This document shows, piece by piece, positions 21,312-55,440 of a stretch of DNA of 64,000 nucleotides. The DNA comes from Mayamaea pseudoterrestris (Eukaryota): positions 682,001-746,000 of the forward strand of contig BROI01000015.1 in the NCBI GenBank assembly GCA_027923505.1, given 5' to 3'. Each line of letters starts with the position of its first letter. The stretch's first letter is position 1. Position numbers and translations under genes: made by a program. Under the pieces are notes generated by a model, which searched no databases, had not been told where the DNA came from, and worked only from the letters and a program-made list of their open reading frames with translations.

Positions 21312-21425
21312 TGGTTCGACTCTGTGACGCACAGTGATATCTTGTCGTACCGAGACACGTTTGTGAACCAAGCTGCACATCCAAGCACCGTCCATCAACC
21401 TTGAAACTCTGCAGTCTCTTCTGCC

Positions 21426-23510
21426 ATGGAGGATGCGATACCAGGGAGATCAAGCATTACAGTAGTAGTTGGAATGTCTCATGGTGGAGCTTCGATTCGA
21501 TGTCAGCGAAGAAGGCAGTCAAGTCACACGACAATAGCATTGTTTCGACTGATGAGCATGCTCGTGTCAACAATGATGCTAGTCGACTACGCATACGCAT
21601 GGAATGCGCCACAACATCCTCAATGTCGCGACCGAAAGTCAGTTAGACTACAGAATAGCAATCAAAGGTCTGATCAAGACGAAACGACGAGCGTTTTGGA
21701 AGATATACAACGAAAACTGGATCAGCAGCAGCGTCAAATCGAACAACTCTTGAACGTTGTCATTTCACAGCAGCAATCTACAGCAGCCTCCTTACATTCT
21801 ACAAATCAACAATCTCCAAGCTCTTCAGTCTCTTCTTCTCAGCATCAGCAATTACAACTTACGCCCATTAAGGCCATGCTCTTTATAGACGGCACTTGGC
21901 TCTACTACTCCATTTTTCAAAGACAAAGTGACAACACTTGCGCAATATCCTCGCGGTTTGGACCGCTTTGGCCGCTCACGCATCGGGTAGACTGGCAGGC
22001 ATTGACGCGCATTGTATCAAGATGTCTTATGGAGCAGCATCAGTCATCGGGTGTACAGTTCTTGTCAACGCCGTCTTCGTCGTCGTCACTATCTCAGCAC
22101 CAAGGCCGCGCCGTCGAAATCGTTCGATCCAGCGTCTTTACAAGCTACAAGGCCGACACACCAACCACATCGCTCCGATACAAAATGTTTGAGGAACTGC
22201 GTCACGCCAATTTTGACGTACACATGATGGAAACGGTCGGCAAGTCGGAAAAGTGCGTTGACATTCAACTGGCCGTGGAAATGTTGCACTTTGCCACGGT
22301 ACCGCACGCGTACGATGTTGCCGTCGTATTGACGGGCGACAAGGACTTTATGCCGGCCATGATTCGGACCCGACAAAAGGGACGGCAAGTGGCGCTTGTC
22401 TCTATGAAGCGAGGGTGCAATCAGGCGTTGGTCAAGACGGATATGCTCAAGGATTTTGACGTCATATGGTTGGACGACCATATTGAAGAGCTAATCGTTC
22501 CAAAGTCAATGGAAGAACTTCCTCATGGTCAAAGGTCACTGTCAGTTTTTACGTTTATGAAAGTGTTGAGAGACTACATTGAGCAATCGGGCGAGAAAAC
22601 AGTTTCTTCGCGCGAAGTTGGTCGGTACCTAAAGACGGTTATAATTGGTTCGACAGTCATGCTCGACGAGCTGAAGAACTCTTGTGGTGGCATTTACTTG
22701 TTTTTAAATCTCCAAGGCAAAGATGTATTTTCGGTGTCGTTCGATGACGACGCATCGGGAGACTCTTCCGTTCGTAGCTACAGGATTGGCTTGAAGCCAA
22801 AGACTGACACAATTTTGTTGGAGATGGCAGAAAGCGCCGACTTGTCGGCTGCCGAAAAGAGCTTTTTTGAAAGCTATACATTTGCGACTGAGGAGGAGCG
22901 GCCGACTTATACCAGCGCCCTCGGACTACAACAGCGAGCAACCGTGAGGCATCATTTGAGCAAGCTCCAAACGCCTGAATTGCACAAAGACGCGGCCCCA
23001 GATTACTCGGGGTACACCTTGCAGCAACTTCGAGATTTATGTCGGATGATGGGACTGCCAGTTTCTGGGTTGAAAGCAGCGGTAATTGAACGCTTAAATG
23101 CAACCAGGAAGGAAACGGTTGGGCAAACTAAAGAATGCGAAATGCGACTAGCGACGCAGCGGCGATTAGCGACTGGCGCAGAACAATCATCAACACAACA
23201 TATACCTGATACAACCACCCGCCATCTGATTAGTCTACTCAGAGAGTATATTCAGGCTAGTGGCGGTAAAGCAAGCTCGCGAGACGTCGGGCGATATCTT
23301 GCCGCTAATCGGTCATCGCCGGAGACGAAACGAAAGCATTTAGTGTCAGCCTTGCAAGAGCTCAAGGCATACTATGGGTCCCTAGCCAACTTCGTACAGG
23401 CCTATCCCGATATCTTGCTACGACTAGATGATGTGGACCGTGCCGGGGACGATGACAAGAATTTTGCTTTCTCAATTGGGTTGAACAAAAACGTGGGTGT
23501 GACGATGTAG
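21426..23510 (+). CDS. NYN (LabA/PIN-like) domain protein with a SAP domain and two OST-HTH/LOTUS-like repeats; possible plastid presequence
   Basis: NYN acidic motifs FIDGTWL, EKCVDIQLAVEM and VLTGDKDFMP. SAP-like TLQQLRDLCRMMGLPVSGLKAAVIERL. Repeated SSR(E/D)VGRYL motif. Confidence 0.8.
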   Translation: MEDAIPGRSSITVVVGMSHGGASIRCQRRRQSSHTTIALFRLMSMLVSTMMLVDYAYAWNAPQHPQCRDRKSVRLQNSNQRSDQDETTSVLEDIQRKLDQQQRQIEQLLNVVISQQQSTAASLHSTNQQSPSSSVSSSQHQQLQLTPIKAMLFIDGTWLYYSIFQRQSDNTCAISSRFGPLWPLTHRVDWQALTRIVSRCLMEQHQSSGVQFLSTPSSSSSLSQHQGRAVEIVRSSVFTSYKADTPTTSLRYKMFEELRHANFDVHMMETVGKSEKCVDIQLAVEMLHFATVPHAYDVAVVLTGDKDFMPAMIRTRQKGRQVALVSMKRGCNQALVKTDMLKDFDVIWLDDHIEELIVPKSMEELPHGQRSLSVFTFMKVLRDYIEQSGEKTVSSREVGRYLKTVIIGSTVMLDELKNSCGGIYLFLNLQGKDVFSVSFDDDASGDSSVRSYRIGLKPKTDTILLEMAESADLSAAEKSFFESYTFATEEERPTYTSALGLQQRATVRHHLSKLQTPELHKDAAPDYSGYTLQQLRDLCRMMGLPVSGLKAAVIERLNATRKETVGQTKECEMRLATQRRLATGAEQSSTQHIPDTTTRHLISLLREYIQASGGKASSRDVGRYLAANRSSPETKRKHLVSALQELKAYYGSLANFVQAYPDILLRLDDVDRAGDDDKNFAFSIGLNKNVGVTM

Positions 23511-24690
23511 TCCCTCATAGTCAGCATTCTACAAGATCTATCGTACACTATTATTTCTTTGTGCAGACCATCTCGACCTGTCGTTGCTGAGTCTGCACCT
23601 TGAGAAAATTCACGTGCTCGCTGAAGAATTGCCTTGACGTCTGACCATCGCTCGGTGAGCCTGCTTGTGAAAGCAGAGTAAGACCCAGCAAGTGAATCAT
23701 TACTTTCAGGTGAGCCCTCGAACGAGTCAACTGTTCGATTTCGTACAAGCATTGGAGATTCTCTTGCAGGTGCTTCGGTCTTGGCTTTTACAGTCAGATC
23801 AGCGCATTTGATGGGACTGGGGTTGGGGTTGGGGTTGGTGGTACTTTGTCCGCGACAGGCGGCCAGCTATCCCGCTTGCTCGTTCTTTTAAGATTGGCTG
23901 ATTTCTGACCAAGTAGACGCTTGGGTCGATTGTCGACAATTAGCTCCGGAATTTCCGAGATGAAACGACCTTGACATTCTTTGTCGGAGTCTGTATCTGT
24001 TTGCGTAAACAGTCGCTGACTTTGGTGGTTGCATCACGTCTTGGACTATACACTGCAAAGCTTGAATCATCTTTGCGGCTGAAGCCGTCATGATTTCCGT
24101 CGAGCAAAGGGCACTTTGTTCCATTGATAATGTCGATGTCACCGTGCCTTTGAAGCATTTTTTCAAGCTTGCGAGCCAATTTGATTAATGCACGGTCGCC
24201 TTCTTTTGCAACGTTCTTTAATGGGTACGCATGTATTGTGTCCTCGCACTGAAGCCCTACTCAGTATCAACGAGGTGTGGTGTGACTTGACCTTTGGGAT
24301 CATGTCATTAATTGCAAGTGGCAGCGCGGACAGCTTTCTCACGGTGGCATGGCACTGCTGTACCATATTAACTGTCACACTATTGTGGACCATACACGCT
24401 ACGGAGACGCTGCGCCCACGCGACTACCGTAACTAAGAGAGACCGATATCATAGACACGAAATTCTGTTGCTCCGTGAGTCTTGTTCCAAGCTAAAAATG
24501 TTCACGCTAATTATAAACTCATATGCCACATTGCGACTCAAGACATAGTACCATTTTTGTGGTCATAATCGATATTGTTGTGCTAAACGTATTCGTACAA
24601 GACCCAAGACGCTGAAGACAACTACCAGAATAGTTAGAGATTGCTATGTATGTCCTGGTCTAGTAGGTCAATTGTGACTAATTGCGTAGC

Positions 24691-24762
24691 GTCCGCTTGG
24701 TCTAGAGGCATGATACCTGCTTTGGGTGCAGGTGGTCCGGGGTTCGATTCCCCGAGCGGACC
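24691..24762 (+). tRNA. tRNA-Pro(TGG)
   Basis: Acceptor stem GTCCGCT/AGCGGAC; anticodon arm CCTGC-TTTGGGT-GCAGG; T-arm CGGGG-TTCGATT-CCCCG; A box TGGTCTAGAGG; TTTT terminator follows. Confidence 0.96.
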
Positions 24763-26472
24763 TTTTGCCCCCTAAAACGATACTAACAAGGGTAAAATCT
24801 TTTTTCTATGTGTAAAAAAGAACGGGAGGTCCCAAGGAACATTTTGCTGGCTGTCTAATGCATGTTGTTGCACCATGCTTGGCCCTACCGGTAGAAGTTA
24901 GAAAAGATTTGGGTACCTTTCACCATTCAGTGTTGCTTAACCTTACCGTTTTTGACCAGCAGCAGCGTGCCGCTTTGCAACTCTCTGCTTGGTTGTATCA
25001 ACGAGTTTTGGCAAGCCAGGTGCCGTAACCTTTGACAATTTCAAACCAGCAGAAGCATGTCAGATGTGCAGTGTGGGCCATGAAGCGCAAGCGGCGCATC
25101 ACTACCGATGGAATCTGCAAGTGAAAAGCCCAACTCAATCTGGATGGGTCCAAGCAGGTCAAGGGAGTCCACTAAAACCAGACCTATGCACCGGCCGCAT
25201 ACTGGGCCACTATCCATCTCATCATAGCCAAGGCACTCCAACTCAAATAGCATACAAGGCAGATTGACTTCGTGCAGGCCTACGGAGGCCAAGTCCAACA
25301 CTATACACGTGGAGAATCCCAAGGCATCGAGGTAACAGGCGAGCAGCCAGGGGACTCCATCCTACACGTCAAAAAACACGTACGGGATGCGACTCAGGCA
25401 GAACCTGGAACGTGACGCGCCCTAACATGTTCAGGAGTCGCGCCTCTCGGCAGCAACAACATGGCCCTTGTTGGTAGGGTCTCGCTGGACAATAGAGCAG
25501 ATAGCACGCATGGTACTGCGACGAGACAATGCCTTGTTCGTGTTGTTTATGTAGTAGCGGCAGCAATTCAAGGTGATTTTGTACCGCTGGCGTTCATGTA
25601 GTCCCCACCAATCATAGCGTCGTAACAGCGCCGAGCCTTGACGAAATTGTTAAGTGTCGCAACCGTATTGCCCATCATTTTTTCTTTTGCAGTCCGAAGA
25701 TCTTATACTCATTCAATCCAGTGAACATTCCATTCACTTCTTCCTCCATGCCATTATCGCCGCTTGACGCTGATGCTGACCGTGACGCCATGCCAGACGT
25801 ATCTTGCTTGAGAGATGCGCCAGCTTGCGCTACCAGCTATTTAAACCCCGCAAGCATTTGACTAAGCTTGACAGTTTTGTCATTTACTGGCTTCTGCGAC
25901 TTGCTGGCATCATCTGCTGCGAGCGCTTTAGCAGGCTCCTCGGGCGACTTGGATGCAACCAATGGAGGCTGCGAATTCATTTTTACCCTTGCTCAGCATC
26001 TTTCTTGGCCTCGTTTAAAATCGTCGTTGTCCGCAAGCCGTACATTCTCTTCCGAAAACTTGGGAGTTTCGGAACTCCAGCCTCGTCAAGTCCTGACTCC
26101 ATTGCAAACTTTTCAATAGGCGTTATTAGAAAAATTGCAAAGTAGAGTTGATGGCATTCCCATTCGCCCTCATGGTGGGCACAATGGTTCGCGACATGCA
26201 GAGCAGAGGAGCGGATATTAGCAGTGCCGATGTTGGACACGACAAAATGCCTTGGCTATCAAATGAACAATAATGAACAAATGTAAGCGCGCGTGAGAAT
26301 AGTAACGTTTATGAGTGTCAAGGCAATGCAGAACGATACTGCTACGAGCGATATGGATGCGTCGTTATGTGAGGGGTCGCATTTGATCGTCCGTCGTCAT
26401 GGTCGAATTCTCGATGGACGAAGCTGTGAGGGCAAACAATAGGTTTCGAAGCAGTACTGGTGAGAAATCACC

Positions 26473-26494
26473 GGTTCGATTCCCCGAGCGGACC
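26473..26494 (+). repeat. Exact 22-bp copy of the tRNA-Pro 3' end (attR-like direct repeat of 24741-24762)
   Basis: GGTTCGATTCCCCGAGCGGACC occurs at both positions; this copy is followed by CTTCTTTT. Confidence 0.9.
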
Positions 26495-26733
26495 CTTCTT
26501 TTCGTTTCGACCCATCTAGTTTGTCTATGTACTTTATTTTGCGAGCATTGGACAGAATAGTATATTTGATACAAACTACTATGTGAATGTTTTGGTATCT
26601 CATGGCATATTCATGGTTTGTTCTCAACAGTGATTTTGCAGTTAAGAATACGAGCAGTGCGTTCGCTATACATGAGACGGATCCCCAACGCTATATGAAG
26701 CCAATGGTCAGTCCGCCAGATTTACATTCGAGT

Positions 26734-26808
26734 GAGGATGTGGTATGCTCGAAGAGACGCAGAGTATGAGGCAGGATGTGGCATGCTCGAAGAGACGCAG
26801 AGTATGAG
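26734..26808. repeat. Local tandem duplication with a 39-bp period
   Basis: GGATGTGG(T/C)ATGCTCGAAGAGACGCAGAGTATGAG occurs twice. Confidence 0.85.
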
Positions 26809-27114
26809 ACAAGCCTGCCCCGGAGGAATTCATTTTCTCCGATCATCTACGGCTACATACGCGGTAATGTATGCAATCGTTCAGAGATAATGAAGCTATT
26901 GTGCATAAATTGCAGGTGCTTGAATGCAGAAGTTACATTGCCGTTCCTTGAGTAGATCGATGAGTACTGAAAGTTGCTGGAAGGACATGGCTACAAATCC
27001 TCAGCCAGCAAGCCCGTGTCTGCATAAATCAGCTCATTAGCGACGTGCTGCTTCATCTAAGACGACAGGGACTTTGAGAGCTGTGCGTCGGACTCCCAGA
27101 AAAGAGCACAGATG

Positions 27115-27603
27115 TCATGCGGCATCGGCTGCAAGACTGCGCCGCTGCGTCGGTAGCTGTCGAAAAGAATTCAATGACTCGTCATCTCCTTCGAAGATAG
27201 AAAGCTTGTCAAGCAACATAACAGTGATCTTTGATGTTTCGCAGGTTGAATTAAAGTCCTCAACACTTGATCGGCGTCTAGGCATTTGCGGCGGAGCTTG
27301 GCTTGATTCTGGATTGTCGATGCTGCCGCTGCAGCCTTTGGCGCGCAATGCTTGAAAAGGGAGCAGACACTTCACTTCAACGGACCTACGCCGTGAGGGC
27401 AAGCGTAAGCAATCCTTGGAGTGAATCGCATCAGGTGACCACCGATTTTCCTTCACTGCAACAATGTGCCTCTTGTTTTTGTAGCGCGGCAACGTTGGTT
27501 TTGAGAAGGCATGTGTATGCAAGCGAGCATTGTCAAACACAACGCTTATCCGGCGCGCGTCAATCCCTTTGCTAATCAGGAGTTCATTGACGAAGGAAGG
27601 CAT
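27115..27603 (-). CDS. Hypothetical protein with repeated P-x-RRxS motifs
   Basis: ATG-initiated 162-aa ORF with VVFDNAR, LPSRRRS, MPRRRSS and LPTQRRS motifs, a pattern I associate with diatom orphan proteins. Confidence 0.55.
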   Translation of the reverse strand: MPSFVNELLISKGIDARRISVVFDNARLHTHAFSKPTLPRYKNKRHIVAVKENRWSPDAIHSKDCLRLPSRRRSVEVKCLLPFQALRAKGCSGSIDNPESSQAPPQMPRRRSSVEDFNSTCETSKITVMLLDKLSIFEGDDESLNSFRQLPTQRRSLAADAA

Positions 27604-28128
27604 GTCTCGATAAAAATTTGATATCTATGTGTGCACCGCGTGAATTATGAGATTCGTACCTAGGCAGGTAGAATGATCAGATAAATCTATTGCACCATCG
27701 AACATGAATCATCAACTGCAATCGACTTGAATCGACTTCTTGCTTGCTCGTGAAACTCCAGTCATTGTGACTTGAAGGATAGTCCGGGACATTCTTCTTG
27801 GGCCTGTGGCTATAGCTTCTGACGCCCAAGAACTCATCCTCAATCTTCCTCGACGTTCGCAAAAGGTAGTGACGCACGATCAACTGCCTCATTGATTGCT
27901 TTTCTTTGGTTGTTTTTCCAGGGGCAATAGGATATTGGGAGGGACAATTGACACTATTTCGAAATGCGTTTGTCTCTTTCAAGTGTCTTGCCTTGCTTTG
28001 ATCGTGCGAGTATGTACTGATCGCCTCCGATGGAGTTATGGAGCGACGGAAGCTTTTAGTGCGGATAGTATAGTACCAGTATGATCTCTTTACGTGTTTA
28101 TGTTTATATGTAGGCAGTGCAATATTTA

Positions 28129-29103
28129 CTAGGAGTACAGTGTTAAACGATCGATTCTCGCCCCAACTCGTTGGGTTCCAAGTTCCCACCTGCGCAAGTC
28201 GCTAAATGTAAATCCAAGACCGACTCCGCCACCTCCTCCAAGAGCAGTCAGTTGTCCGCACGTGGGACAGAGTACATAATCCAGATTCTGAATGCTAGTC
28301 AGCTCAACCTTGCAAGCCTGGCAGGGTGACGCCTGGTAAAAGTCTCGCTGCAGGCAGCTCCACGTTTCCTGCGCACCTCGCACCTTGGCCATGACGCCGG
28401 GACGAATCTCGACGGTGCGCTGAAAGGGTAGCGAAAGGGTTGGTGCCTTGGAATCAGGTCCAAGCTTGTTTCTGCGCGGCACACTCAAGCTCATATTGTT
28501 CAGTTGCGTGTTGACACTCACTTGGCGATGGTAGCTAGGAGGCGTGTCAATGTGACTTGTCGAATCCCAAAAGGGATTGCTGTCGCCGCGCAGGTTGCGA
28601 GTAGGCAAAGGTGCGTTTCGGGAGGCAACCTCGGAAGTGAAAGCACTGAATCGAGCATTCTGGTGTTGCTGTTGGCTTATGGAAGTCGACAAAGGCGGAA
28701 CGCCAGTGTTTTCTACTGAACCTGAGCGTCGTGGGAGGGAAGGTGGAAGGTCTGTGCTGGGGATAGTTGGCGACTTTGATTGACCTCGAATCGGCGATGC
28801 AGGAGAGAGGTTGGACGGACGAAAGAAGCGGTATTGGGTTTCGTCCTGCTCGCGATTGTTGCAGGACTGGTCGACGAATCGAGGACTGAATGTTGCGTTC
28901 TTTGTATCGTCCACTTCATTATGGTGTCGCTCGAGGGCTATTCGGAGATCATCGAGCTTGCGCTTGCTCGTCGCTCTTGTAGTGAATCCGAGCGCCGCAT
29001 TGGACTTGCGGATCATAGACGAGTGATCGAAAGGACTGAGCTTGCTGGCACTCTGTCGCTTCGTGCAAGACAGGAGCTTGCTCATGGACGAAGTCTTCTT
29101 CAT
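28129..29103 (-). CDS. Hypothetical protein with a C-terminal 4-Cys module (RGAQETW...CQAC...YVLCPTC...GGVGLGF)
   Basis: Likely start MKKTSS at 29103; low-complexity N-terminus; two CxxC pairs in a conserved-looking C-terminal block. Confidence 0.65.
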   Translation of the reverse strand: MKKTSSMSKLLSCTKRQSASKLSPFDHSSMIRKSNAALGFTTRATSKRKLDDLRIALERHHNEVDDTKNATFSPRFVDQSCNNREQDETQYRFFRPSNLSPASPIRGQSKSPTIPSTDLPPSLPRRSGSVENTGVPPLSTSISQQQHQNARFSAFTSEVASRNAPLPTRNLRGDSNPFWDSTSHIDTPPSYHRQVSVNTQLNNMSLSVPRRNKLGPDSKAPTLSLPFQRTVEIRPGVMAKVRGAQETWSCLQRDFYQASPCQACKVELTSIQNLDYVLCPTCGQLTALGGGGGVGLGFTFSDLRRWELGTQRVGARIDRLTLYS

Positions 29104-29615
29104 GTTCAGCTTTTTCAATGCAATGGAAAATGTATGAATGCTCCGGAGGATTTGTGAGGCGCTATGGATCGGCAATTGTCCAAAATGAGACGCAAGGAAC
29201 TCGAACAGGAAGGCTCGAAGAAAAATGACAAAATGCACCCTTGGAGTTTAACATGACGTCCAAACCGAACCCAGCCGAGTCGAAGATAGTCTTCAACTTG
29301 AAGTAGGCGTCAACTGAAACAGGAAGCTGATGACAACCATCTGTTATTGTGTCGATTGGAGGAACCATTGGAAGCCAAATCTAATCCAAAAGCAACTTGG
29401 CGGGATCGTCAACCTATGCCCCCAGGCCATTGCGATGCCAGAGGCATTCTTTCAAATGGCATTGGAACAACCGGCCGTTCAGGAGGATCCTTTCCAAAAC
29501 TAACCTACTCCGCATAGTATATACGTACTCCGTCATTTGCTAACCTACGAGTCTACATCATACTCCTAGAAATGTTTCCAAAAGATACTAGCACGTGGTT
29601 GCTGAATTGAAGTCT

Positions 29616-34610: not shown

Positions 34611-37600
34611 AAGTATCACTTGCTACTTGAGGTGCACCACTAGCAGATCCAACAAGTTGTTGGATCTGCTCAGTCCTGTGGCATACATGGTGATGGATAC
34701 TGAGGTGCAACTGACCAACTTATGGCCCATCATGACAACAAACATGATATGAAAGATATGGGAGGGCTCACCAGGCAAGGCTGGTGATCCCTGCAGCCAA
34801 AATGGGAGCAGGGCTGGCACATTCAACCAGTTGTTGAATGTGCAGAGTCTCAGGGCATAGTGATGGCTTCCACATCCCAAAGAACAAGTCTATGAGTCCC
34901 ATGCACTGTTCAAGTCCATGTTTGTTGTATTACGGGGTCTGCAGGCCATTTTGGAGGTCTCACTTGCCACTTGAGGTGCATCGCTGGCAGATCCAACAAG
35001 TTGTTGAATCTGCTCAGTCTCACCATGGTGTACATGGTGATGGATACTATGGTGCAACTGACCCACTTATGGTCCATCATGACAACAAACATGATATGAA
35101 AGATATTGGAGGGCTCAGCAGGCAATGCTGGTGATCCCTGCAGCCAAAAAGGGAGCAGGGCTGGCACATTCAACCAGTTGTTAAATGTGCGGAATCTTAG
35201 GGCATAGTGATGGCTTCCACACCCCAAAGAACAAGTCTATGAGTCCCATTCACTGTTCCAGTCCAAGTTTGTTGTATTGTGGGTCTGCAGGCCATTTTGG
35301 AAGTCTCACTTGCCACTTGAGGTGCATTGCTGGCAGATCCAACAAGTTGTTGAATCTGCTCAGTCTCACCATGGCGTACATGGTGATGGATACTATGGTG
35401 CAACTGACCCACTTATGGCCTATCATGACAACAAACATGATATGAAAGATATTGGAGGGCTCAGCAGGCAATGCTGGTGATCTCTGCAGCCAAAAAGGGA
35501 GCAGGGCTGGCACATTCACCCAGTTGTTGAATGTGCGGAGTCTCAGGGCATAGTGATGGCTTCCACACCCCAAAGAGCAAGTCAATGAGTCCCATTCACT
35601 GTTCAAGTCCATGTTTGTTGTATTGTGGGTCTGCAGGCCATTTTGGAAGTCTCACTTGCCACTTGAGGTGCATTGCTGGCAGATTTAACAAGTTGTTGAA
35701 TCTGCTCAGTCTCACCATGGCGTACATGGTGATGGATACTATGGTGCAACTGACCCACTTATGGCCCATCATGACAACAAACATGATATGAAAGATATTG
35801 GAGGGCTCAGCAGGCAATGCTGGTGATCCCTGCAGCCAAAAAGGGAGCAGGGCTGGCACATTCAACCAGTTGTTGAATGTGCGGAGTCTCAGGGCATAGT
35901 GATGGCTTCCACACCCCAAAGAACAAGTCTATGAGTCCCATTCACTGTTCCAGTCCATGTTTGTTGTATTGTGGGTCTGCAGGCCATTTTGGAAGACTCA
36001 ATTGCCACTTGAGGTGCATTGCTGGCAGATCCAACAAGTTGTTGAATCTGCTCAGTCTCACCATGGCGTACATGGTGATGGATACTATGGTGCAACTGAC
36101 CCACTTATGGCCCATCATGACAACAAACATGATATGAAAGATATTAGAGGGCTCAGCAGGCAATGCTGATGATCTCTGCAGCCAAAAAGGGGGCAGGGCT
36201 GGCACATTCAAGCAGTTGTTGAATGTGCCGAGTTTCAGGGCATAGTGATGGCTTTCACACCCCAAAGAACATGTCTATGAGTCCCATTCACTGTTCAAGT
36301 CCATGTTTGTTGTATTGTGGGGTCTGCAGGCCATTTTGGAAGTCTCACTTGCCACTTGAGGTGCATCGCTGGCAGATCCAACAAGTTGTTGAATCTGCTC
36401 AGTCTCACCATTGCACAGGTGGCAATAGATACTGAGGTGCAACTGACCCACTTATGGCCCATCATGACAACAAACATGATATGAAAGATATGGGAGGGCT
36501 CAGCAGGCAATGCTGGTGATCCCTGCAGCCAAAAAGGGAGCTGTGCTGGCACATTCAACCAGTTGTTGAATGTGCGGAGTTTCAGGGGCATAGTGATGGC
36601 TTCCACACCTAATTGGACAAGTCTTTGAGTCCCATTCACTGTTCGAGTCCATGTTTGTTGTATTTTGGGGTCTGCAGGCCATTTTGGAAGTCTCACTTGC
36701 CACTTGAGGTGCATTGCTAGCAGATCCAACAAGTTGTTGAATCTGCTCAGTCTCACCATGGCGTACATGGTGATGGATACTATGGTGCAACTGACCCACT
36801 TATGACCCATCATGACAACAAACATGTTATGAAAGATATTGGAGGGCTCAGCAGGCAATGCTGGTGATCCCTGCAGCCAAAAAGGGAGCAGGGCTGGCAC
36901 ATTCAACCAGTTGTTGAATGTGCGGAGTTTTCAGGGCATAGTGATGGCTTCCACGCCCCAATGAACAAGTCTATGAGTCCCATTCACTGTTCCAGTCTAT
37001 GTTTGTTGTATTGTGGGGTCTGCAGGCCATTTTGGAAGTCTCACTTGCCACTTGAGGTGCATCGCTGGCAGATCCAACAAGTTGTTGAATCTGCTCAGTC
37101 TCACCATTGCACAGGTGGCGATAGATACTGAGGTGCAACTGACCCACTTATGGCCCATCATGACAACAAACATGATATGAAAGATATGGGAGGGCTCAGC
37201 AGGCAATGCTGGCGATCCCTGCAGCCAAAAAGGGAGCAGGGCTGGCACATTCAACCAGTTGTTGAATGTGCGGAGTTTCAGGGGCATAGTGATGGCTTCC
37301 ACACCTAAATGGACAAGTCTATGAGTCCTGTTCACTGTTCCAGTCCATGTTTGTTGTGTTGTGGGGTCTGCAGGCCATTTTGGAAGTCTCACTTGCCACT
37401 TGAGGTGCACCACTGGCAGATCCAACAAGTTGTTGAATCTGCTCAGTCTCACCATGGTGTACATGGTGATGGATACTATGGTGCAACTGACCCACTTATG
37501 GTATATCATGACAACAAACATGTTATGAAAGATATTGGAGGGCTCAGCAGGCAATGCTGGTGATCCCTGCAGCCAAATAGGGAGCAGGGCTGGCACATTC

Positions 37601-40600
37601 AACCAGTTGTTAAATGTGCGGAGTTTCAGGGGCATAGTGATGGCTTCCACACCTAAATGGACAAGTCTTTGAGTCCCATTCACTGTTCAAGTCCATGTTT
37701 GTTGTATTGTGGGGTCTGCAGGCCATTTTGGAAGTCTCACTTGCCACTTGAGGTGCATTGCTAGCAGATCCAACAAGTTGTTGAATCTGCTCAGTCTCAC
37801 CATGGCGTACATGGTGATGGATACTATGGTGCAACTGACCCACTTATGGTATATCATGACAACAAACATGTTATGAAAGATATTGGAGGGCTCAGCAGGC
37901 AATGCTGGTGATCCCTGCAGCCAAATAGGGAGCAGGGCTGGCACATTCAACCAGTTGTTGAATGTGCGGAGTTTTCAGGGCATAGTGATGGCTTCCACAC
38001 CCCAAAGAACATGTCTATGAGGCCCATTCACTGTTCCAGTCTATGTTTGTTGTATTGTGGGGTCTGCAGGCCATTTTGGAAGTCTCACTTGCCACTTGAG
38101 GTGCATTGCTAGCAGATCCAACAAGTTGTTGAATCTGCTCAGTCTCACCATTGCACAGGTGGCGATAGATACTGAGGTGCAACTGACCCACTTATGGTAT
38201 ATCATGACAACAAACATGTTATGAAAGATATGGGAGGGCTCAGCAGGCAAGGCTGGTGATCCCTGCAGCCAAAAAGGGAGCTGTGCTGGCACATTCAACC
38301 AGTTGTTGAATGTGCGGAGTTTCAGGGCATAGGATGGCTTCCACACTTAAATGGACAAGTCTATGAGTCCCATTCACTGTTCCAGTCCATGTTTGTTGTA
38401 TTGTGGAGTCTGCAGGCCATTTTGGAAGTCTCACTTGCCACTTGAGGTGCATTGCTAGCAGATCCAACAAGTTGTTGAATCTGCTCAGTCTCACCATGGT
38501 GTACATGGTGATGGATACTATGGTGCAACTGACCCACTTGTGGCCCATCATGACATGATATGAAAGATATTGGGAGGGCTTAGCAGGCAATGCTGATGAT
38601 TCCTGCAGCCAAAAAGGGAGCAGGGCTGGCACATTCAACCAGTTGTTGAATGTGCGGAGTTTCAGGGCATAGTGATGGCTTCCTCACCTAAATGGACAAG
38701 TCTTTGAGTCCCATTCACTGTTCAAGTCCATGTTTGTTGTATTGTGGGGTCTGCAGGCCATTTTGGAAGTCTCACTTGCCACTTGAGGTGCATTGCTAGC
38801 AGATCCAACAAGTTGTTGAATCTGCTCAGTCTCACCATGGCGTACATGGTGATGGATACTATGGTGCAACTGACCCACTTATGGTATATTATGACAACAA
38901 ACATGTTATGAAAGATATTGGAGGGCTCAGCAGGCAATGCTGGTGATCCCTGCAGCCAAATAGGGAGCAGGGCTGGCACATTCAACCAGTTGTTGAATGT
39001 GCGGAGTTTCAGGGGCATAGTGATGGCTTCCATACCTAAATAAACAAGTCTTTGAGTCCCATTCACTGTTCAAGTCCATGTTTGTTGTATTGTGGGGTCT
39101 GCAGGCCATTTTGGAAGTCTCACTTGCCACTTGAGGTGCATTGCTAGCAGATCCAACAAGTTGTTGAATCTGCTCAGTCTCACCATGGTGTACATGGTGA
39201 TGGATACTATGGTGCAACTGACCCACTTATGGCCCATCATGACAACAAACATGATATGAAAGATATTGGAGGGCTCAGCAGGCAATGCTGGTGATCCCTG
39301 CAGCCAAAAAGGGAGCAGGGCTGGCACATTCAACCAGTTGTTGAATGTGCGGAGTTTTCAGGGCATAGTGATGGCTTCCACACCCCAAAGAACAAGTCTA
39401 TGAGTCCCATTCACTGTTCCAGTCCATGTCTGTTGTATTGTGGGGTCTGCAGGCCATTTTGGAAGTCTCACTTGTCACTTGTGGTGCATTGCTAGCAGAT
39501 CCAACAAGTTGTTGAATCTGCTCAGTCTCACCATTGCACAGGTGACGATAGATACTGAGGTGCAACTGACCCACTTATGGCCCATCATGACAACAAACAT
39601 GTTATGAAAGATATTGGAGGGCTCAGCAGGCAATGCTGGTGATCCCTGCAGCCAAAAAGGGAGCTGTGCTGGCACATTCAACCAGTTGTTGTTTGTGCGG
39701 AGTTTCAGGGCATAGGATGGCTTCCACACGTAAATGGACAAGTCTATGAGTCCCATTCACTGTTCCAGTCCATGTTTGCTGTATTGTGGGGTCTGCAGGC
39801 CATTTTGGAAGTCTCACTTGCCACTTGAGGTGCATTGCTAGCAGATCCAACAAGTTGTTGAATCTGCTCAGTCTCACCAGCGACAGGTGATACTGGAGTG
39901 CAACTGACCAACTTATGGCCCATCATGACAACAAACATGATTATAAAAAATTTGTGAGGGCTCAGCAGGCAATGCTGATGATCCCTGCAGCCACAAAGGG
40001 AGCAGGGCTGGCACATTCAACCAGTTGTTGAATGTGCTGAGTCTCAGGGCATAGTGATGGCTTCCACACCAAAAAAAAACAAGTCTATGAGTCCCATGCA
40101 CTGTTAAAGTCCATGTTTATTGTATTATGGGGTCTGGAGGCCATTTTGGAAGTCTCACTTGCCACTTGAGGTGCACCGCTGGCAGATCCAACAAGTTGTA
40201 GGGTTGGCTCAGTCTCACCATTGCATACATGGTGATGGATACTGAGGTGCAACTGACCATCTTATGGCCCATCATGTCAACAAACATGATATGAAAGATA
40301 TTGGGAGGGCTCAGCAGGCAATGCTGATGATCCCTGCAGCCACAAAGGGAGCAGGGCTGGCACATTCAACCAGTTGTTGAATGTGCGGAGTGTCAGGGCA
40401 TAGTGATGGCTTCCACGCCCCAATGGACAAGTCTATGAGTCCCTTTCACTGTTACAGTCCATGTGCGTTGTATTATGGGTCTGCAGGCCATTTTGGAAGT
40501 CTCACTTGCCACTTGAGGTGCACTGCTGGCAGATCCAACAAGTTGTAGGGTCTGCTCAGTCTCACCATGGCTTTCAAGGTGATGGATACTGAGGTGCAAC

Positions 40601-42425
40601 TGACCATCTTATGGCCCGTCATGACAACAAATATGATATGAAAGATATTGGAGGGCTCAGCAGGCAATGCTGATGATCCCTGTAGCCACAAAGGGAGCAG
40701 GGCTGGCACATTCAACTAGTTGTTGAATGTGCGGAGTCTCAGGGCATAGTGATGGCCACTACACCCAAAAGAACAAGTCTATGAGTCCCATTCTCTGTTA
40801 CAGTCCATATTTGTTGTATTATGGGGTTTGCAGGCCATTTTGGAAGTCTCACTTGCCACTTGAGGTGCACTGCAGGCAGATCCAACAAGTCGTAGGGTCG
40901 GCTCAGTCTCACCATGGCTTTCAAGGTGATGGATACTGAGGTGCAACTGACCAACTTATGGCCTATCATGACAACAAACATGATATGAATGATATTGGAG
41001 GGCTCAGCAGGCAATGCTGATGATCCCTGCAGCCACAAAGGGAGCATGACTGGCACATTCAACCAGTTGTTGAATGTGCGGATTCTCAGGGCATAGTGAT
41101 GGCTTCCACACCCCAATGGACAAGTCTTTGAGTCCCAATCACTGTTAAAGTTTATGTTTATTGTATTATGGGGTCTGGAGACCATTTTGGAAGTCTCACT
41201 TGCCACTTGAGGTGCACTGCTGGCAGATCCAACAAGTTGTAGGATCTGCTCAGTCTCACCATAGCATACATGGTGAAGGATACTGAGGTGCAACTGACCA
41301 TTTCATGGCCCATCATGACAAAAAACATGATATGAAAGATATTGGAGGGCTCAGCAGGCAATGCTGATGATCCCTGCAGCCACAAAGGGAGCATGGCTGG
41401 CACATTCAACCAGTTGTTGATTGTGCGGAGTCTCAGGGCATAGTGATGGCTTCCACACCTACAAGAACAAGTCTATGAGTCACATTCACTGTTACAGTCC
41501 ATGTTTGTTGTATTATGGGGTCTGCAGGCCATTTTGGAAGTCTCACTTGAGGTGCACTGCTGGCAGATCCAACAAGTTGTAGGGCTGGCTGAGTCTCACC
41601 ATGGCATACACGGTGATGGATGCTGAGGTGCAATTGACCAACTTATGGCCCATCATGACAATAAACCTATTTGAAATATATTGGTGGGCTCAGCGAGCAA
41701 TGCTGATGATCCCTGCAGCCACAAAGGGAGCAGGGCTGGCACATTCAACCAGTTGTTGAATTTGCAGAGTCTCAGGGCATAGTGATGGCTTCCACACCCA
41801 ATTGGTCAAGTCTATGAGTCCCATTCACTGTTCAAATTTATGCTTGTTGTATTATGGGGTCTGCAGGCCATTTTGGAAGTCTCACTTGCCACTTGAGGTG
41901 CACTGCTGGTAGATCCAATAAAGTATTGGATCTTCTCAGTCTCACCATGGCATACATGGTGATGGATACTGAGGGGCAACCGACCAACTATGGCCCATCA
42001 TGACAACAAACATGATATGAAAGATATTGGAGGGCTCAGCTGGCAATGCTGATGATCCCTGCAGCGAAAAGTGGAGCAGGCTGGCACATTCAACCAGTTG
42101 TTGAATGTGCGGAGTCTCAGGGCATAGTAATGGCTTCCACACCCAATTGGAAAAGTCTTTGAGTCCCATTCACTGTTCAAGTTAAGGTTTGTTGAATCAT
42201 GGGGTCTGGAGGCCATTTTTAAAGTCTCACTTGCCACTTGAGGTGCACCGCTAGCAATTGTTGTATCTGCTCAGTCTCACCGTGGCATACATGGTGAAGG
42301 ATACTGAGGTGACCAATGATTGAATTGGGGCAATCAGCCGGGTGCTGATGTGCCCTGCAGCCAAAGGAGAGGCTGGCCATTCCGCAGTGGTTGCATGTGC
42401 GGAGTCTCAGGGCATGTGATGCTTC
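34611..42425. repeat. Tandem array of ~22.5 copies of a ~346-348 bp unit, each a diverged dimer of ~169+177 bp with several palindromes
   Basis: The anchor GGGCATAGTGATGGCTTCCAC (or close variants) recurs about 23 times, from ~34853, 35200, 35546, 35892 to ~42120 and 42410. Copies become more degenerate toward 42.4 kb. Confidence 0.97.
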
Positions 42426-43186: not shown

Positions 43187-44677
43187 TTATAATAAAATGG
43201 CGCCTTCAATGGCCTTTAAGGTCAGGCGTCCAACCTCGTGGGTACTTTCCCGTAGGTAGTGTTGTACCGACGGCGGAGACCAGCGTAATCGAAAGGCAAT
43301 CTCCTCAATGGAGAGGCCCGCATTTTGCAAGGCAACTGCAGCTGTGACTCGATTTGAATGAGCTACAATGCTGTTGATATTCTGGCGCAGGAAGTGTTTC
43401 GGGTCAGGGTATGCTCCAACAACCACTTGCCGCATGACTTTAATGATATCGCGCGACTGCAAGTACTCGTAAGCGCCAGTGGCATCTTTGCGAAAGACCC
43501 CAAGCGGCTCACGTATTGCTTTCTTGTGTAGTTGTTGGGCGCGGGAGAGGATGGAAAGACTCGCGGCAATAGGGCAAATGAAAGGATGGCCCGACCGACG
43601 ATACCGACGAATAGTGAAGTTGTTTTGGCTCTTATCGTATCGAAAACGTAGGCGCAACTCGTATGCCTGGCTGCCATCTTTCAGGAGTGCGCTATGGCTA
43701 ATGAGCACGTTGTGTTTAGAGTAGAAAGTAAAATCCAAGTCGACAAAGGCAAGTGGTTGGTGCGCCCATTCGCCCGCATCTTGGGTTGGCGGTACCTTGC
43801 TGAAGCAACCGCGTTTCGCTGTAGTCTGTGCGTACTCGTTTGCCCTGGAACCGGTAAAGGCCCCGAGGCAAGTCCAGTCAAAGACTGCTGCCTCCAAATC
43901 AAGCGCATGACGAACGTCTGTGTGGATGAGGCGCTTGAGTTTGGAGTAGAGGAACGCAAACATACTGTGGGTGTATGGCTCGCGCTTTTCCCGCGCCTGT
44001 TGCCATTTGCGGCGACTGGACAAGATATCATCTAAAACGGGATGAAGGCCACTGCCACGAGGGTCATTGATGGAGAAGCGCCGATTGAGTGCAGTTTCAA
44101 GTAGTGCATGCGCCGCTCTGAGGTATCCACTGAGCGTCTTCACCTTGAGGGGCTGTGGTTCATCAGTGCTCTGTCGGCGCAGCGCCCGTTTGTCCACTGC
44201 CAAGGATGTCTCGCCAGAGGAGACAGCATATAGATAGCTGGCTAGGACCGGGATTTCTTGCCCCGGTGCGATTGACGCGAAAAGACTGGTCGTTGAATCC
44301 TGCTTTAAGACTCCATTTTCCAAAATGCGAGGCGCGCTGGTCAAACGTGCGATCGTTGTGGGACCGAATGTCTCCTCGTTGGCGGTGTTGTTGATCACTG
44401 ACGAGATAACTGTAAGCAGCTTGGACTCGACCAGGAAGACCTTGCAATTGGCTAACACCTGCGTTTCCGGCGAGATAACGGATGCCCCCGCGAGAGTCGA
44501 CGCCGTGAAGCGAGACAGTCTGTCGGCCTCCACATTGTCCTTGCCTGAATGTGTGTTTGCCTGGATGCGGAGAGATAATGTACTGTAAGTGGCAATGTGC
44601 ATGAAAGAAATTGTGCCAGGCGGCGGAAGATGAGATCCTTGAGGAAACGCCTTTGGCTGAAACGTTCTAGCATGCAC
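43187..44677 (-). CDS. Tyrosine recombinase (DIRS-type) preceded by an RNase H C-terminal remnant
   Basis: Full catalytic set: R (FTGSRANEY), K (RYDKS), HxxR (AHSNR), W (RLRW), Y (QHYLR), plus CPIAA. The upstream HSGKDNVEADRLSR matches the retroelement RNase H ending. Confidence 0.88.
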   Translation of the reverse strand: MHARTFQPKAFPQGSHLPPPGTISFMHIATYSTLSLRIQANTHSGKDNVEADRLSRFTASTLAGASVISPETQVLANCKVFLVESKLLTVISSVINNTANEETFGPTTIARLTSAPRILENGVLKQDSTTSLFASIAPGQEIPVLASYLYAVSSGETSLAVDKRALRRQSTDEPQPLKVKTLSGYLRAAHALLETALNRRFSINDPRGSGLHPVLDDILSSRRKWQQAREKREPYTHSMFAFLYSKLKRLIHTDVRHALDLEAAVFDWTCLGAFTGSRANEYAQTTAKRGCFSKVPPTQDAGEWAHQPLAFVDLDFTFYSKHNVLISHSALLKDGSQAYELRLRFRYDKSQNNFTIRRYRRSGHPFICPIAASLSILSRAQQLHKKAIREPLGVFRKDATGAYEYLQSRDIIKVMRQVVVGAYPDPKHFLRQNINSIVAHSNRVTAAVALQNAGLSIEEIAFRLRWSPPSVQHYLRESTHEVGRLTLKAIEGAILL

Positions 44678-44928
44678 AGTCGTGCGGCGCTTGCAGGGTT
44701 TGTTTCGATGTCTTGCTCATCCTTCTTTATTTGCTCGATGGTGGTTTCGTAGCGCGCTCGAGAAACAACATGCTCAGGCGCTTGATTGCGGTGCTCCCAT
44801 GCTTGAAGAAAAGATTGATAGCCTTCGTAGGTGAATGAGTCTGATCCGTAACTTTGACTGCTTGGGTATGCATCTGAATCGTAAGTTGCGTCGTCTGAAT
44901 TGGTTTCTTCATCGCCAGGATTGCTCAT
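44452..44928 (-). pseudogene. In-frame continuation of the gag ORF past one TGA, then frameshifted relative to the RNase H/YR frame
   Basis: ATG at 44928 lies 30 nt past the 44959-44961 stop in the same frame; the ORF overlaps the YR ORF in a different frame. Confidence 0.5.
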
Positions 44929-44958
44929 GATGATTTCGACTCGCTCTGTATCCCAGAC

Positions 44959-47508
44959 TCAAAGACCAGTGTATTGGTAGTAGCGGTCTCGCGTTGAGTC
45001 AATTGCTTCTTGATGCGTAAAGGCGTGTGGCATGGCTATGTGCTCAAGAAAGAATTCTTGTAGATCTGCAAACATCACTTTTACGGCGTCTGATAGCTCG
45101 TACAGTGGAGGATTGATGAACAGGACGCTTTGCAAAACGTGGAATGGCGGTAGATCAGTCGAGTTGGCTTGTGACGGAATGTTGTTTGGAATTCTTGGAG
45201 CAAAGGTTGGATACAAGTGCTCGACTTCTTTTAGCTCGTCTGCTGTAAGGAAGTCTTTGGGTAGCCAGTCTCCTCGCCATTGCGCAAAGCTTGTCGCTAC
45301 AAGTTCTTCTACACTTTCTTCTTCTTTCAATTCAATTGGAGGACTTGTTGTTGGAGTTGAATCCTTGTCGGCGCTGCAAGTTGTGACGTTGTCGGTGCGC
45401 TCATGTGTGTCGCATTCGTTGGCGTTTGTGGTTGTTGGCTCAAGATTGGTGGCTTCAGTTGTGTCGCTGCTCGTTGTGACGTTATTGGTGCTTTGCGTAG
45501 CGTCGTAGCCGTGGTAGGAATCGTTAAGATTGTTTGCTTGCTCTTCAATTGATGAGTGCGCTTGTTGCTCTGATTTACTTGGCTCGTCTTGTTCGTGAAA
45601 TGGCAGACCCTTCCCGTCTTCTTGCTTCGTTTGCTCAAGTGTTTCAATGTTTTGAATTAAAGTGCTGAAGTGTTTCCGTTCTTGCTCGGTTGGAGTCTTG
45701 TTGTTGACAAATTCTTCTTCAAAGTCGCTTTCTTCTTCATCACTTGTGCTTGGGTCGCCGCATATGGATGCCCAACTGCGTCCATTGAGATTTGACGATG
45801 GAAGATTTGGCTTTGGCTTTGGTGACTCGCTCGTTGTGGACGACTTTGTTAAAGGCACCAATTCGACGGCTTGCTTCTTGTTGGTGGAGCTTGACGTTGT
45901 TCTTGCGCGTTTTGTTCGAGTTGTTGGTGGTGCTGGAGGCTGCTCGATTGATGAATCGTCTTCCGATGAATAGTCTTTAATCTGATGTGGCTGTAGACCG
46001 CGCCAATTGGTTTGTGGATATAAAGGCGACGGTGTTGGAGCTGCAGGAGTGCGAGTAGGGAGTGCTGGATAAGTTTCATCAACTAAGTCGGCATGTATGA
46101 AGGCAAATTCGCTCCTTGAGTTTGTAGAAGGATAACGGCGGCTTAAAGAGGAACGTTGCGAAGAGGAGCGATGCGATCGCTGAGTCAACTGAAGGGCTTC
46201 GTGTACTGCTGCAAGTCCTTGTTCAAGTAGTAATGGTGCTTGACGAGGCACTTGCTCGCGCATGATGGTTCGCGGGTGAGGCTCTTGACGATGGTTTTGA
46301 TGCTCAAGTTGACGCTGCGGTTGCTCTTGATGATCTCGACGATGATAATCATTGTCTCTTGGTTGGTCTCTTGTGCACTCGTTGTTGCGATTCTGGCGAT
46401 AACGACGGTCTTCTTGTTGATCATCTTGAGGAAGACGACGATCTGGCTGTCGATTTGAATTGCGAGGACGCTCTCTTGGTCGTTCTAAACCCCGCTCTTG
46501 TTGCTCTCGTGCTTCTTCATCTTCCAATTGACGACGAGCTTCAATTGACAGGCGAGTGTTCCATCCGCGAGGCCGACGATGGGCGTTTTCGACTCGTTCA
46601 AAGCAGTCGGCGCTTCGATGATACGGTTGATGGCAAAGGTAGCATTTGAATGATGGTGGATTTCGCGTGTTGTTATAGTTGGTTTGCGGGCGTTCATTGC
46701 GAGTTGGCGGCGCTTGATGCTGACGAGTGTTTTGTTGGCGTGAAGTTTCTTGTTGCGGCGGTTCTGGTTGTGCTGCATATAGAACAATCTCGTTGACTCC
46801 TTGTATTAAAGCTTCTTCATCTTCTGCTGCGTAAATCGTTTGGTAGATAGTCGACACGACGCCTTCCATTTCGGTCTTGGTCAGGGCGCGTTGCTTGGTC
46901 TTTTGCTCTTGCGCTAGAGCGAGGCAGTATTGAGGCGGCAGCTTGTTCATGAGTGTAGCCATCAGGTCTTCTGCAAGAAGCGTTTGGTTGAACTTGATGG
47001 CTTGCGATTGCATGAGATCAATGAGGTCTTGAGGATTTGCTGTTGGTCGTTCGAGCTTGAGATTTTGAATGCTTCGTCGGTAAAGTGTTGGCGCCATGAA
47101 CTTGTCTGGAGAAAATTTGATTTCCAATGCGTTGATAACTTTCCAAGCTTCGCCTCCTGGATACTCTGTTGATTCTGCTCCAACTAGATGGTCGTTCAGC
47201 TCGGGGAATGGCGACAATGCGATGGAAAGCATTTGCATGAGCGTTTCATTCTGCTTGCGTTCCGCTTGTTTGTTTCGAATGATTTGGATTTCATCTGCCG
47301 TTGCGTTAGCTGCAGGATCAGTAATGACTTCATTCTGAGTAGCTGGTAAGTGCTCGGGTCGACTGCCTCTTATAGGACGGCGGCAGCCTGCAATTCTTGC
47401 ATGATTCTTGAACTGGTTGAACCATGATGGAAAGGCTTCGATGGTGTTGGTTATCTTTGGCGTTTTGTAGAGTGCATTCATAGTGATGTCTTCTTGTTGG
47501 TCGGTCAT
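44959..47508 (-). CDS. Gag-like protein with a CCHC zinc knuckle and a long low-complexity tail
   Basis: CYLCHQPYHRSADC knuckle. The N-terminal FPSWFNQFKNHA...YPGGEAWKVINALEIKFSP resembles Copia-type gag. Confidence 0.75.
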   Translation of the reverse strand: MTDQQEDITMNALYKTPKITNTIEAFPSWFNQFKNHARIAGCRRPIRGSRPEHLPATQNEVITDPAANATADEIQIIRNKQAERKQNETLMQMLSIALSPFPELNDHLVGAESTEYPGGEAWKVINALEIKFSPDKFMAPTLYRRSIQNLKLERPTANPQDLIDLMQSQAIKFNQTLLAEDLMATLMNKLPPQYCLALAQEQKTKQRALTKTEMEGVVSTIYQTIYAAEDEEALIQGVNEIVLYAAQPEPPQQETSRQQNTRQHQAPPTRNERPQTNYNNTRNPPSFKCYLCHQPYHRSADCFERVENAHRRPRGWNTRLSIEARRQLEDEEAREQQERGLERPRERPRNSNRQPDRRLPQDDQQEDRRYRQNRNNECTRDQPRDNDYHRRDHQEQPQRQLEHQNHRQEPHPRTIMREQVPRQAPLLLEQGLAAVHEALQLTQRSHRSSSQRSSLSRRYPSTNSRSEFAFIHADLVDETYPALPTRTPAAPTPSPLYPQTNWRGLQPHQIKDYSSEDDSSIEQPPAPPTTRTKRARTTSSSTNKKQAVELVPLTKSSTTSESPKPKPNLPSSNLNGRSWASICGDPSTSDEEESDFEEEFVNNKTPTEQERKHFSTLIQNIETLEQTKQEDGKGLPFHEQDEPSKSEQQAHSSIEEQANNLNDSYHGYDATQSTNNVTTSSDTTEATNLEPTTTNANECDTHERTDNVTTCSADKDSTPTTSPPIELKEEESVEELVATSFAQWRGDWLPKDFLTADELKEVEHLYPTFAPRIPNNIPSQANSTDLPPFHVLQSVLFINPPLYELSDAVKVMFADLQEFFLEHIAMPHAFTHQEAIDSTRDRYYQYTGL

Positions 47509-47516
47509 GGTTGCGA

Positions 47517-50201: not shown

Positions 50202-50390
50202 GTTTGCACTTAACCACGTAAGCTTGCAGACTGACGCAAGCTCTTCTTGCAATTCAAGTTGAATCGCACCTTGTTGCTTTCTTTGGACCGTTTTGGCTTC
50301 TTGCGGGTTACCTCAGTCCACTCATCGTTAGCTAACTCATCCTCATCCTTAAGTCGGTCCGAGCACCGTGAAGACTCGCTATTCACAACA
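50202..50390 (-). repeat. Truncated 3' LTR (189 bp)
   Basis: Matches 55624-55812 except 2 adjacent substitutions seen (TTTGGACC vs TTTTAACC); similarity ends abruptly at 50202. Confidence 0.9.
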
Positions 50391-54363: not shown

Positions 54364-54387
54364 CCAAGGATCCTCGTCCTCCGAGTC

Positions 54388-55389: not shown

Positions 55390-55440
55390 GGTGCTTGGCA
55401 TCTTGTCTTGAATCCTTTCTAAGTCGAACGTTTTAAAACG

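Follow-up and report, generated by a model that had tools for sequence, protein, structure and literature searches.

Integration into the 3′ end of a transfer RNA (tRNA) gene, with restoration of that gene, is a hallmark of prokaryotic genomic islands and phages. In prokaryotic tRNA islands, prophages, and CIME-type elements, an intact tRNA gene lies at one end of the element and a direct repeat of its 3′ segment, reaching from the T arm to the end of the gene, lies at the other. Williams is said to have described, in 2002, a T-loop sublocation for the sites that tyrosine integrases use within tRNA genes. A similar arrangement is present in the diatom Mayamaea pseudoterrestris, within a window of 64,000 nucleotides (the whole stretch of DNA analyzed; GenBank assembly GCA_027923505.1, contig BROI01000015.1, forward-strand positions 682,001 to 746,000, renumbered here from 1). 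A 1,710-bp insert at 24763-26472 separates an intact tRNA-Pro(UGG) gene (24691-24762) from an exact copy of the last 22 bp of that gene (26473-26494). The locus is probably the scar of an insertion-type event, with a sister copy at another tRNA-Pro gene. We tentatively favor the interpretation that the insert belongs, as a non-autonomous or fully decayed member, to a small family of tRNA-Pro(UGG)-targeting elements, with att-type recombination as its most likely route of entry.

Functionally, such an element would come closest to the islands that integrate into tRNA genes of prokaryotes and to their integrase-less relatives of the CIME type. Besides the intact gene and the displaced repeat, the shared features are a new trailer supplied by the element, the lack of an integrase as in CIMEs, and, probably, repeated insertion at one tRNA species. 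The diatom locus differs in that its host is a eukaryotic nucleus, the element has no integrase inside or next to it, the insert is short (1.7 kb) and non-coding, and neither an empty site nor an excision product was seen in the four sequencing runs compared. If the interpretation is correct, the locus would represent a eukaryotic nuclear counterpart of the bacterial tRNA-targeting islands and integrase-less hitch-hikers, and a compact safe-harbor integration system in a diatom. A defined attachment sequence (hairpin, 22-mer, TTTTGCC) would then be available for tracing the recombinase or virus that uses it, and there would possibly be a tool for site-specific transgene insertion in diatoms. 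Should the arrangement instead reflect duplication by a retroelement or a host module, it would be a minor curiosity.

Elements Targeting Small RNA Genes in Eukaryotes

Eukaryotic nuclear elements are known that land near tRNA genes (PMC5006619) or that split them, as do the Dada elements (PMC3706591). The former group includes retrotransposons of dictyostelids and, likewise, elements of yeast (PMC5006619). Dada elements are DNA transposons of the DDE type that insert inside genes for tRNA and for small nuclear RNA (snRNA) in fish, in Daphnia, and in the protist Perkinsus, generating duplications of 6-7 bp and leaving the RNA gene in two fragments (PMC3706591). One of them, Dada-U6N1, occupies the same site as Dada-U6 and is a derivative with shared termini and a missing or diverged interior (PMC3706591). 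The diatom insert resembles Dada in its strict specificity for a small RNA polymerase III (Pol III) or snRNA gene, in the lack of terminal inverted repeats, and, probably, in having internally deleted derivatives at the same site. It differs in that its repeat measures 22 bp, the gene is left whole, and neither a DDE transposase nor a sub-terminal inverted repeat was found.

Elements mobilized by tyrosine recombinases (YRs) provide a second point of comparison. Voyager, a giant fungal element of the Starship group, is tens to hundreds of kb long, carries its own "captain" tyrosine recombinase, and inserts into 5S ribosomal DNA 20 bp from the 5′ end of the gene, which is predicted to inactivate 5S (PMC9156397). 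It is, as the insert described here would be, a YR-type element at a conserved multicopy Pol III gene, and its authors explicitly liken it to the bacterial elements of tRNA genes (PMC9156397). The diatom insert, in contrast, has no recombinase, lies at the 3′ end of its target, and leaves the gene restored. Cryptons, including the CryptonS elements of oomycetes and a diatom, are YR DNA transposons for which a circular intermediate has been proposed (PMC3212892). They share with the insert their occurrence in diatoms, the lack of inverted repeats, and bounding direct repeats that are thought to be the recombination substrate. They carry a YR gene, however, and their direct repeats are 4-6 bp long and not derived from tRNA, a word that the paper does not contain (PMC3212892); the insert has no open reading frame (ORF) that matches a family, and its repeat is 22 bp. 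Elsewhere, cryptophyte Polinton-like viruses that encode a YR had no tRNA genes near the insertion sites (PMC12220804), and endogenous nimaviruses sharing a YR family are associated with telomeres (PMC10871703).

Multicopy RNA genes are also home to target-specific non-LTR (long terminal repeat) retrotransposons (PMC3706591; PMC4640811), among them R1/R2, Mutsu, Keno, Dewa, and Utopia. These resemble the diatom insert in the targeting of small RNA genes, the lack of inverted repeats, and possibly a long target duplication of fixed length. They are unlike it in that the insert has no remnant of a reverse transcriptase (RT) or endonuclease and no real tail, and both of its ends are apparently common to two loci.

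The tRNA-Pro Gene and the Displaced Copy of Its 3′ End

The gene at 24691-24762 (plus strand) is the sole tRNA found by ARAGORN in the window, and it matches Rfam family RF00005 (gathering score 29) with 55.8 bits over model positions 1-71 of 71. Composed of a host 5′ part and the 22-bp repeat, it would form the "attL-like" end of the element. The 22-mer GGTTCGATTCCCCGAGCGGACC occurs exactly twice in the window, each time on the plus strand, at 24741-24762 (copy 1) and at 26473-26494 (copy 2), the latter a lone tRNA 3′ fragment that would form the "attR-like" end. No further match was found in the window when up to three mismatches were allowed, and two or more matches were obtained in none of 100 shuffled sequences (mean 0.00). 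When the cloverleaf is parsed manually, the identity runs from the last two T-stem pairs (tRNA position 52) to the discriminator base, so that the repeat comprises T-stem positions 52-53, the T loop, the 3′ strands of the T stem and the acceptor, and the discriminator. It ends abruptly: the first base past the repeat is T behind copy 1 and C behind copy 2. Both copies are followed by a run of four T residues, directly behind copy 1 at 24763-24766 and, behind copy 2, at 26499-26502 within the trailer CTTCTTTTCGTTTCG (26495-26509, plus strand). We infer that this latter trailer is the original one of the tRNA gene, with its native terminator. Each copy of the 22-mer also contains the B-box-like sequence GGTTCGANTCC, for which these are the only two exact sites in the window.

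Most of this anatomy had been proposed in an initial annotation of the locus, and its descriptive elements held up. Exact matching within the window confirmed the recurrence of the tRNA 3′ end, the T-rich, terminator-like run reported behind the second copy corresponds to the four T residues given above, the hairpin GGTGA-GAAA-TCACC is present against copy 2 at 26459-26472, and the interval contains only broken ORFs, the longest frame from stop to stop measuring 119 amino acids (aa).

Copy 2 does not appear to be what is left of a complete tRNA. A decayed full tRNA, or a tRNA-derived short interspersed nuclear element (SINE) that includes 5′ sequence, had been raised as an alternative in the initial annotation; it was rejected on the finding that no residual 5′ half (A box, D arm, or anticodon arm) accompanies the fragment. 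The tRNA model has no match in 26200-26700 at E values up to 10, the three matches listed there being microRNA and small nucleolar RNA matches at chance level. The first 24 bases of the tRNA and the following 26 bases each occur once in the window with up to three mismatches allowed, leaving no second 5′ part. An alignment of the 80 bp upstream of copy 2 with the 5′ 50 nt of the tRNA scores 6, against a shuffle mean of 7.06, and 1835 of 2000 shuffles score at least as well.

A Probable Second tRNA-Pro Locus

Five public sequencing runs from two studies contain the stretch, and four of them (X1, X2, X4, and X5, representing four samples) were compared with the window over 22500-28500 at 85% likeness. 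These data consist of contigs, which drop rare variants. For X4 and X5 the depth is low and parts of the stretch are without cover, and no conclusion is drawn from these gaps. The insert is present in all four runs: a single contig of 2,890 nt spans 24044-26928 in X1, two contigs cover 24044-25717 and 25719-26928 in X2, and in X4 and X5 pieces at low depth lie inside the insert.

In X1 and X2 there is, in each case, one additional contig that is collinear with the window on 24691-24799, 25384-25410, and 26458-26494. It covers the whole tRNA, the first 37 bp of the insert (24763-24799, beginning with a TTTT that resembles a Pol III terminator), 27 internal bp (25384-25410), and the last 15 bp (26458-26472, including the hairpin) followed by the 22-mer, all on the plus strand. 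The pieces are connected by joints from 24799 to 25384 and from 25410 to 26458, the internal piece having a side of 27. The depth of the additional contig (37.5 in X1 and 114.5 in X2) is that of a single-copy sequence, the main locus having 37.9 and 115.8-139.5, respectively, and the extra depth in four bins equals the contribution of one such contig. Loose ends unlike the window start exactly before 24691 and exactly behind 26494 in both runs; the one behind the 22-mer, GGTCGTTTTGCC..., has a run of four T residues within 10 nt. Because the contig is collinear and single-copy, has other flanks, and comes with a matching excess of depth, there is probably another tRNA-Pro locus, whose flanks are unrelated and which holds a related element having the same two ends and a displaced 22-mer of its own. 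Together with the lone 3′ fragment in the window, this supports the architectural part of what the initial annotation had claimed, namely an insertion that leaves the gene whole and displaces its 3′ fragment to the far end.

Simpler histories for the fragment have to be compared with this evidence. Tandem tRNA genes are common in eukaryotes, and LTR elements are present in the window, as shown by a Copia element at 50210-55548. The fragment might accordingly derive from a local duplication, in which the downstream one of two tandem tRNA-Pro genes 1.7 kb apart lost its 5′ 50 bp, or might be the primer-binding site of a truncated minus-strand LTR element; taken together, these origins are highly improbable. 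A duplication has to accommodate the loss of every trace of the 5′ part while 22 of 22 bases remain unmutated, and the second locus repeats the arrangement with other flanks. Primer-binding sites of LTR elements normally stop at the modified A58 and include the CCA. Copy 2 matches the tRNA for 22 nt, through the whole T loop, and the CCA is unmatched, the bases behind the fragment being CTT (AAG on the minus strand, not TGG). The right flank, 26520-26720, is where the LTR would lie; it is single-copy in the contigs of X1 and X2 and is therefore not an LTR, and no second copy of any part of 24600-26700, and hence no LTR pair, was found in the window.

A module maintained by the host, rather than a mobile element, is an unlikely source of the two loci, although several observations are compatible with it. 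Such a module, consisting of tRNA-Pro, a spacer, the hairpin, and the B-box-bearing tRNA 3′ fragment, would have been duplicated along with tRNA-Pro genes, the fragment could serve as an extra TFIIIC site or a boundary, and the spacer in the window would owe its greater length to two unrelated insertions (584 and 1,047 bp). The second-locus contig may indeed be compact, with a shared spacer of only 37 + 27 + 15 bp, the 22-mer contains a perfect B-box-like GGTTCGATTCC, and the insert is fixed in the four runs with no empty site seen. Secondary insertions would also fit the presence, elsewhere in the genome, of short, diverged relatives of the interior at about 24960-25057 (loose ends at 25011, 25014, and 25057; raised depth in the bin 24912-25112). 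Function as a B box, however, leaves the identity of the 11 acceptor-strand bases unaccounted for, and no RNA family or significant fold was found at the fragment. Moreover, the likeness between the loci ends precisely with the first tRNA base on one side and the last base of the fragment on the other, and limits as sharp as these are predicted by target-specific insertion and not by segmental duplication.

One contig of X4, at low depth, begins to match the insert only at 24922; ahead of this point it has 248 unrelated letters, the last of which form the T-arm-like GGGTTCGAATTCC. It may be another partial copy of the element interior at a different place.

Content and Variation of the Insert

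The insert has no detectable coding or RNA content. Protein searches with the frames 25983-26255 (minus strand) and 24956-25267 (plus strand) returned no homologues, and the first of these also found nothing in a full HMMER scan against 1.84 billion representatives. Among the frame pieces compared with Pfam, one gave two HEPN matches at chance level (E 0.036 and 0.18). When 54 six-frame peptides of the insert were compared with 79 loci of YR elements and the rest of the window, the best matches (E 0.006-0.012) were short and chance-like. A blastn search of phage and plasmid collections gave no match, no RNA family or internal Pol III promoter was found in the insert, and a scan for promoters and terminators of bacterial type remained at chance level. 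Terminal inverted repeats are not convincing in any instance, and sub-terminal ones were likewise not found. The hairpin at the right end does not fold better than shuffled sequence (z = -1.47; an equally good fold in 13 of 200 shuffles). When codon usage was scanned with training on the genes of the window itself, a weak signal was obtained on the minus strand alone, at 25640-26200. Frames near 25000-25420 were considered as remains of a Copia integrase or RT and rejected: tblastn with eight window proteins, including Copia pol and gag, gave a best E of 0.13, Pfam gave nothing, and the Copia element of the window is by this search unrelated to the insert.

The minus-strand codon signal bears on a further explanation, in which the insert is a target-specific retroelement in minus orientation, of the non-LTR or SINE-like kind, that entered by target-primed reverse transcription. 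Nicks 22 bp apart, at the tRNA 3′ end and in the T stem, would produce a constant 22-bp target-site duplication, and the upstream copy of the gene would remain whole as a by-product. Long fixed target duplications are known for target-specific non-LTR elements such as SLACS and Tx1. A minus-strand element would also end ...GGGGGCAAAA directly against the end of the tRNA, with a short A tail, and target-specific non-LTR elements of small RNA genes are established, with Mutsu, Keno, Dewa, and Utopia as examples (PMC3706591). We nonetheless judge this origin improbable. The tail is only A4, no remnant of an RT or endonuclease was recovered from the 12 frames compared with Pfam, the 54 six-frame peptides, or the homologue searches, and the insert has neither an internal Pol III promoter nor an RNA family. 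In addition, the 5′ end that such an element would have is also common to the second locus, whereas copies of retroelements are usually truncated at their 5′ ends at differing points.

The insert is polymorphic among the runs. An indel polymorphism lies within it at 26010, where X2 and X4 have 40 extra letters that show internal dyad symmetry (CTCTTGA...TCAAGAG). All 10 substitutions between the X1 contig and the window fall into two clusters in the flanks, at 24564-24675 (6 in 112 nt) and 26784-26836 (4 in 53 nt), and there are none in the 2,108 nt of 24676-26783, which contain the tRNA, the insert, and 290 nt beyond. X2 has 8 of these 10 flank variants, but within the insert it differs by 5 substitutions and 2 insertions. 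This pattern could have arisen through recombination between haplotypes or gene conversion, or because the insert region has a recent common origin.

A Tentative Model of Integration

Read at the level of sequence, the anatomy of the locus fits a target-specific insertion that may either have duplicated the last 22 bp of the gene or have brought its own copy. In the model that we tentatively favor, the second of these would apply. The element would have entered within the last 22 bp of the tRNA-Pro gene by conservative site-specific recombination, the partners being a circular element that bears its own tRNA 3′ end (attP-like) and the gene (attB-like); the crossover would lie in the T loop or just to its right. 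After entry the gene would again be complete, consisting of the host 5′ part, the 22 bp, and a TTTT run from the element, and the second 22-bp copy, still joined to the original trailer of the gene, would lie at the far end. Catalysis would be provided in trans by a recombinase encoded elsewhere. The junction of the predicted circle would read from the right-end hairpin through the 22-mer into TTTTGCCCCC, and the empty site would read from the tRNA-Pro gene directly into the trailer CTTCTTTTCG. Mobility, the circular intermediate, the type of enzyme, and the presence of native trailers behind the fragments are all inferred from this anatomy.

Recombination of the att type is favored because the limits of the repeat coincide with the T arm and the end of the gene, and because the two loci agree in both termini and the interior is absent or divergent, a pattern known from DNA elements and their deletion derivatives. 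The occurrence of four T residues within 10 nt behind the gene, copy 2, and the copy at the second locus is expected if the fragments keep their native trailers. A broader version of the model is possible but doubtful: the insert would belong to a diatom family of integrase-mobilized DNA elements for which a copied tRNA-Pro 3′ end serves as the attachment site and whose entry rebuilds the gene, with the recombinase coming from an undiscovered autonomous partner or a virus.

A number of observations speak against att-type integration or reduce its probability. Searches of the openly accessible full-text literature for a eukaryotic nuclear element lying between a tRNA gene and a copy of the gene's 3′ end were without result, and the prior for integration of this type is low because these searches gave no eukaryotic nuclear precedent that restores the tRNA gene. 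The insert contains neither a recombinase nor any other detectable gene, and none of its 12 longest frame pieces reaches a Pfam family. The 22-mer has no match in collections of metagenome contigs or of viral contigs, so that no free or viral attP was found in either. The initial annotation had suggested that an empty allele be looked for in the other haplotype or in other strains; neither the empty site (joint 24762 to 26495) nor the back-joint of a circle was seen in the contigs of the four runs, which miss rare forms. The second locus is known from tables of joints, depth, and loose ends that do not give the interior length between its pieces, and its two loose ends are placed on the same contig by inference. 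A fixed 22-bp target duplication by a retroelement would give the same picture. Finally, no tRNA-like sequence was found in the element that lies 17 kb away and bears the only YR gene of the window, and ARAGORN, which recovered the window's own tRNA as a positive control, detected a tRNA gene in none of 79 loci around YR relatives (379,902 nt, many of them short). On these grounds, with no recombinase in the insert, no empty site in the four runs, and no link seen between the neighboring YR and tRNA genes, the other part of the original proposal, that a YR was the agent of integration, is not demonstrated.

The Tyrosine Recombinase 17 kb Away

The YR in question is encoded on the minus strand at 43187-44716 (509 aa) and is the third frame of a three-frame element at 43187-49520. 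The other two frames, also on the minus strand, encode 860 aa with one CCHC-like knuckle (44959-47541) and 667 aa (47517-49520), and neither matches a Pfam family. The Pfam integrase match of the YR frame is weak (E 0.11) and no relative was found in the PDB, but it has 94 homologues, mostly of about 350 aa from metagenomes together with Mayamaea proteins. In an alignment of 23 of these, R291, K362, H453, R456, and Y487 are invariant and W479 is present in at least 90% of the rows; we take these six residues to be the tyrosine-recombinase catalytic set. The frame accordingly represents a genuine YR family, one that is common among metagenome contigs of diatom-like character.

The insert shares nothing with the 79 loci of YR relatives, and this YR is not implicated in its integration. 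As many of these loci are short, the lack of tRNA genes in them is evidence against a link of the YR to tRNA genes and not proof. No RT was detected in 43187-49520 or in the ORFs of about 950 aa that lie upstream of the YR in the related loci L052 and L069, and Pfam found no RT or RNase H family in these ORFs or in the proteins P0001 and P0021. Because the upstream ORFs contain no RT or RNase H family, the element is left unclassified as to whether it is DIRS-like or Crypton-like. An RNase-H-like motif in the YR element was no more than an impression.

Other Features of the Window

The window consists of eukaryotic nuclear DNA with a high density of genes. Among the encoded proteins are an S1-domain protein, a RING protein, an EamA transporter, a PAP2 protein, a PI4-kinase, an NAD-ligase-like protein, an NYN/SAP protein, and a P-type ATPase. 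The tRNA gene and the insert lie in the interval from the NYN/SAP-domain gene (21405-23510) to an ORF of 372 aa on the minus strand (28129-29247). For one window protein the best named relatives are from Mayamaea pseudoterrestris, with 68% identity, and 93% over a fifth of the query. The Copia-type LTR retrotransposon at 50210-55548 (minus strand) has long open frames encoding gag with zinc knuckles, the Pol beta-barrel, integrase, and RVT_2.

To the left of the tRNA gene, the region 23505-24425, with minus-strand frames, has about double contig depth in X1 and X2, and two contigs diverge behind 24425, which points to a paralogous or second-haplotype copy of this neighboring region. A satellite of 7.7 kb at 34611-42311 consists of 22.3 copies of a 348-bp unit with 91% matches and lies between the P-type ATPase gene on one side and the YR element on the other; its minus strand has long repeated open frames throughout.

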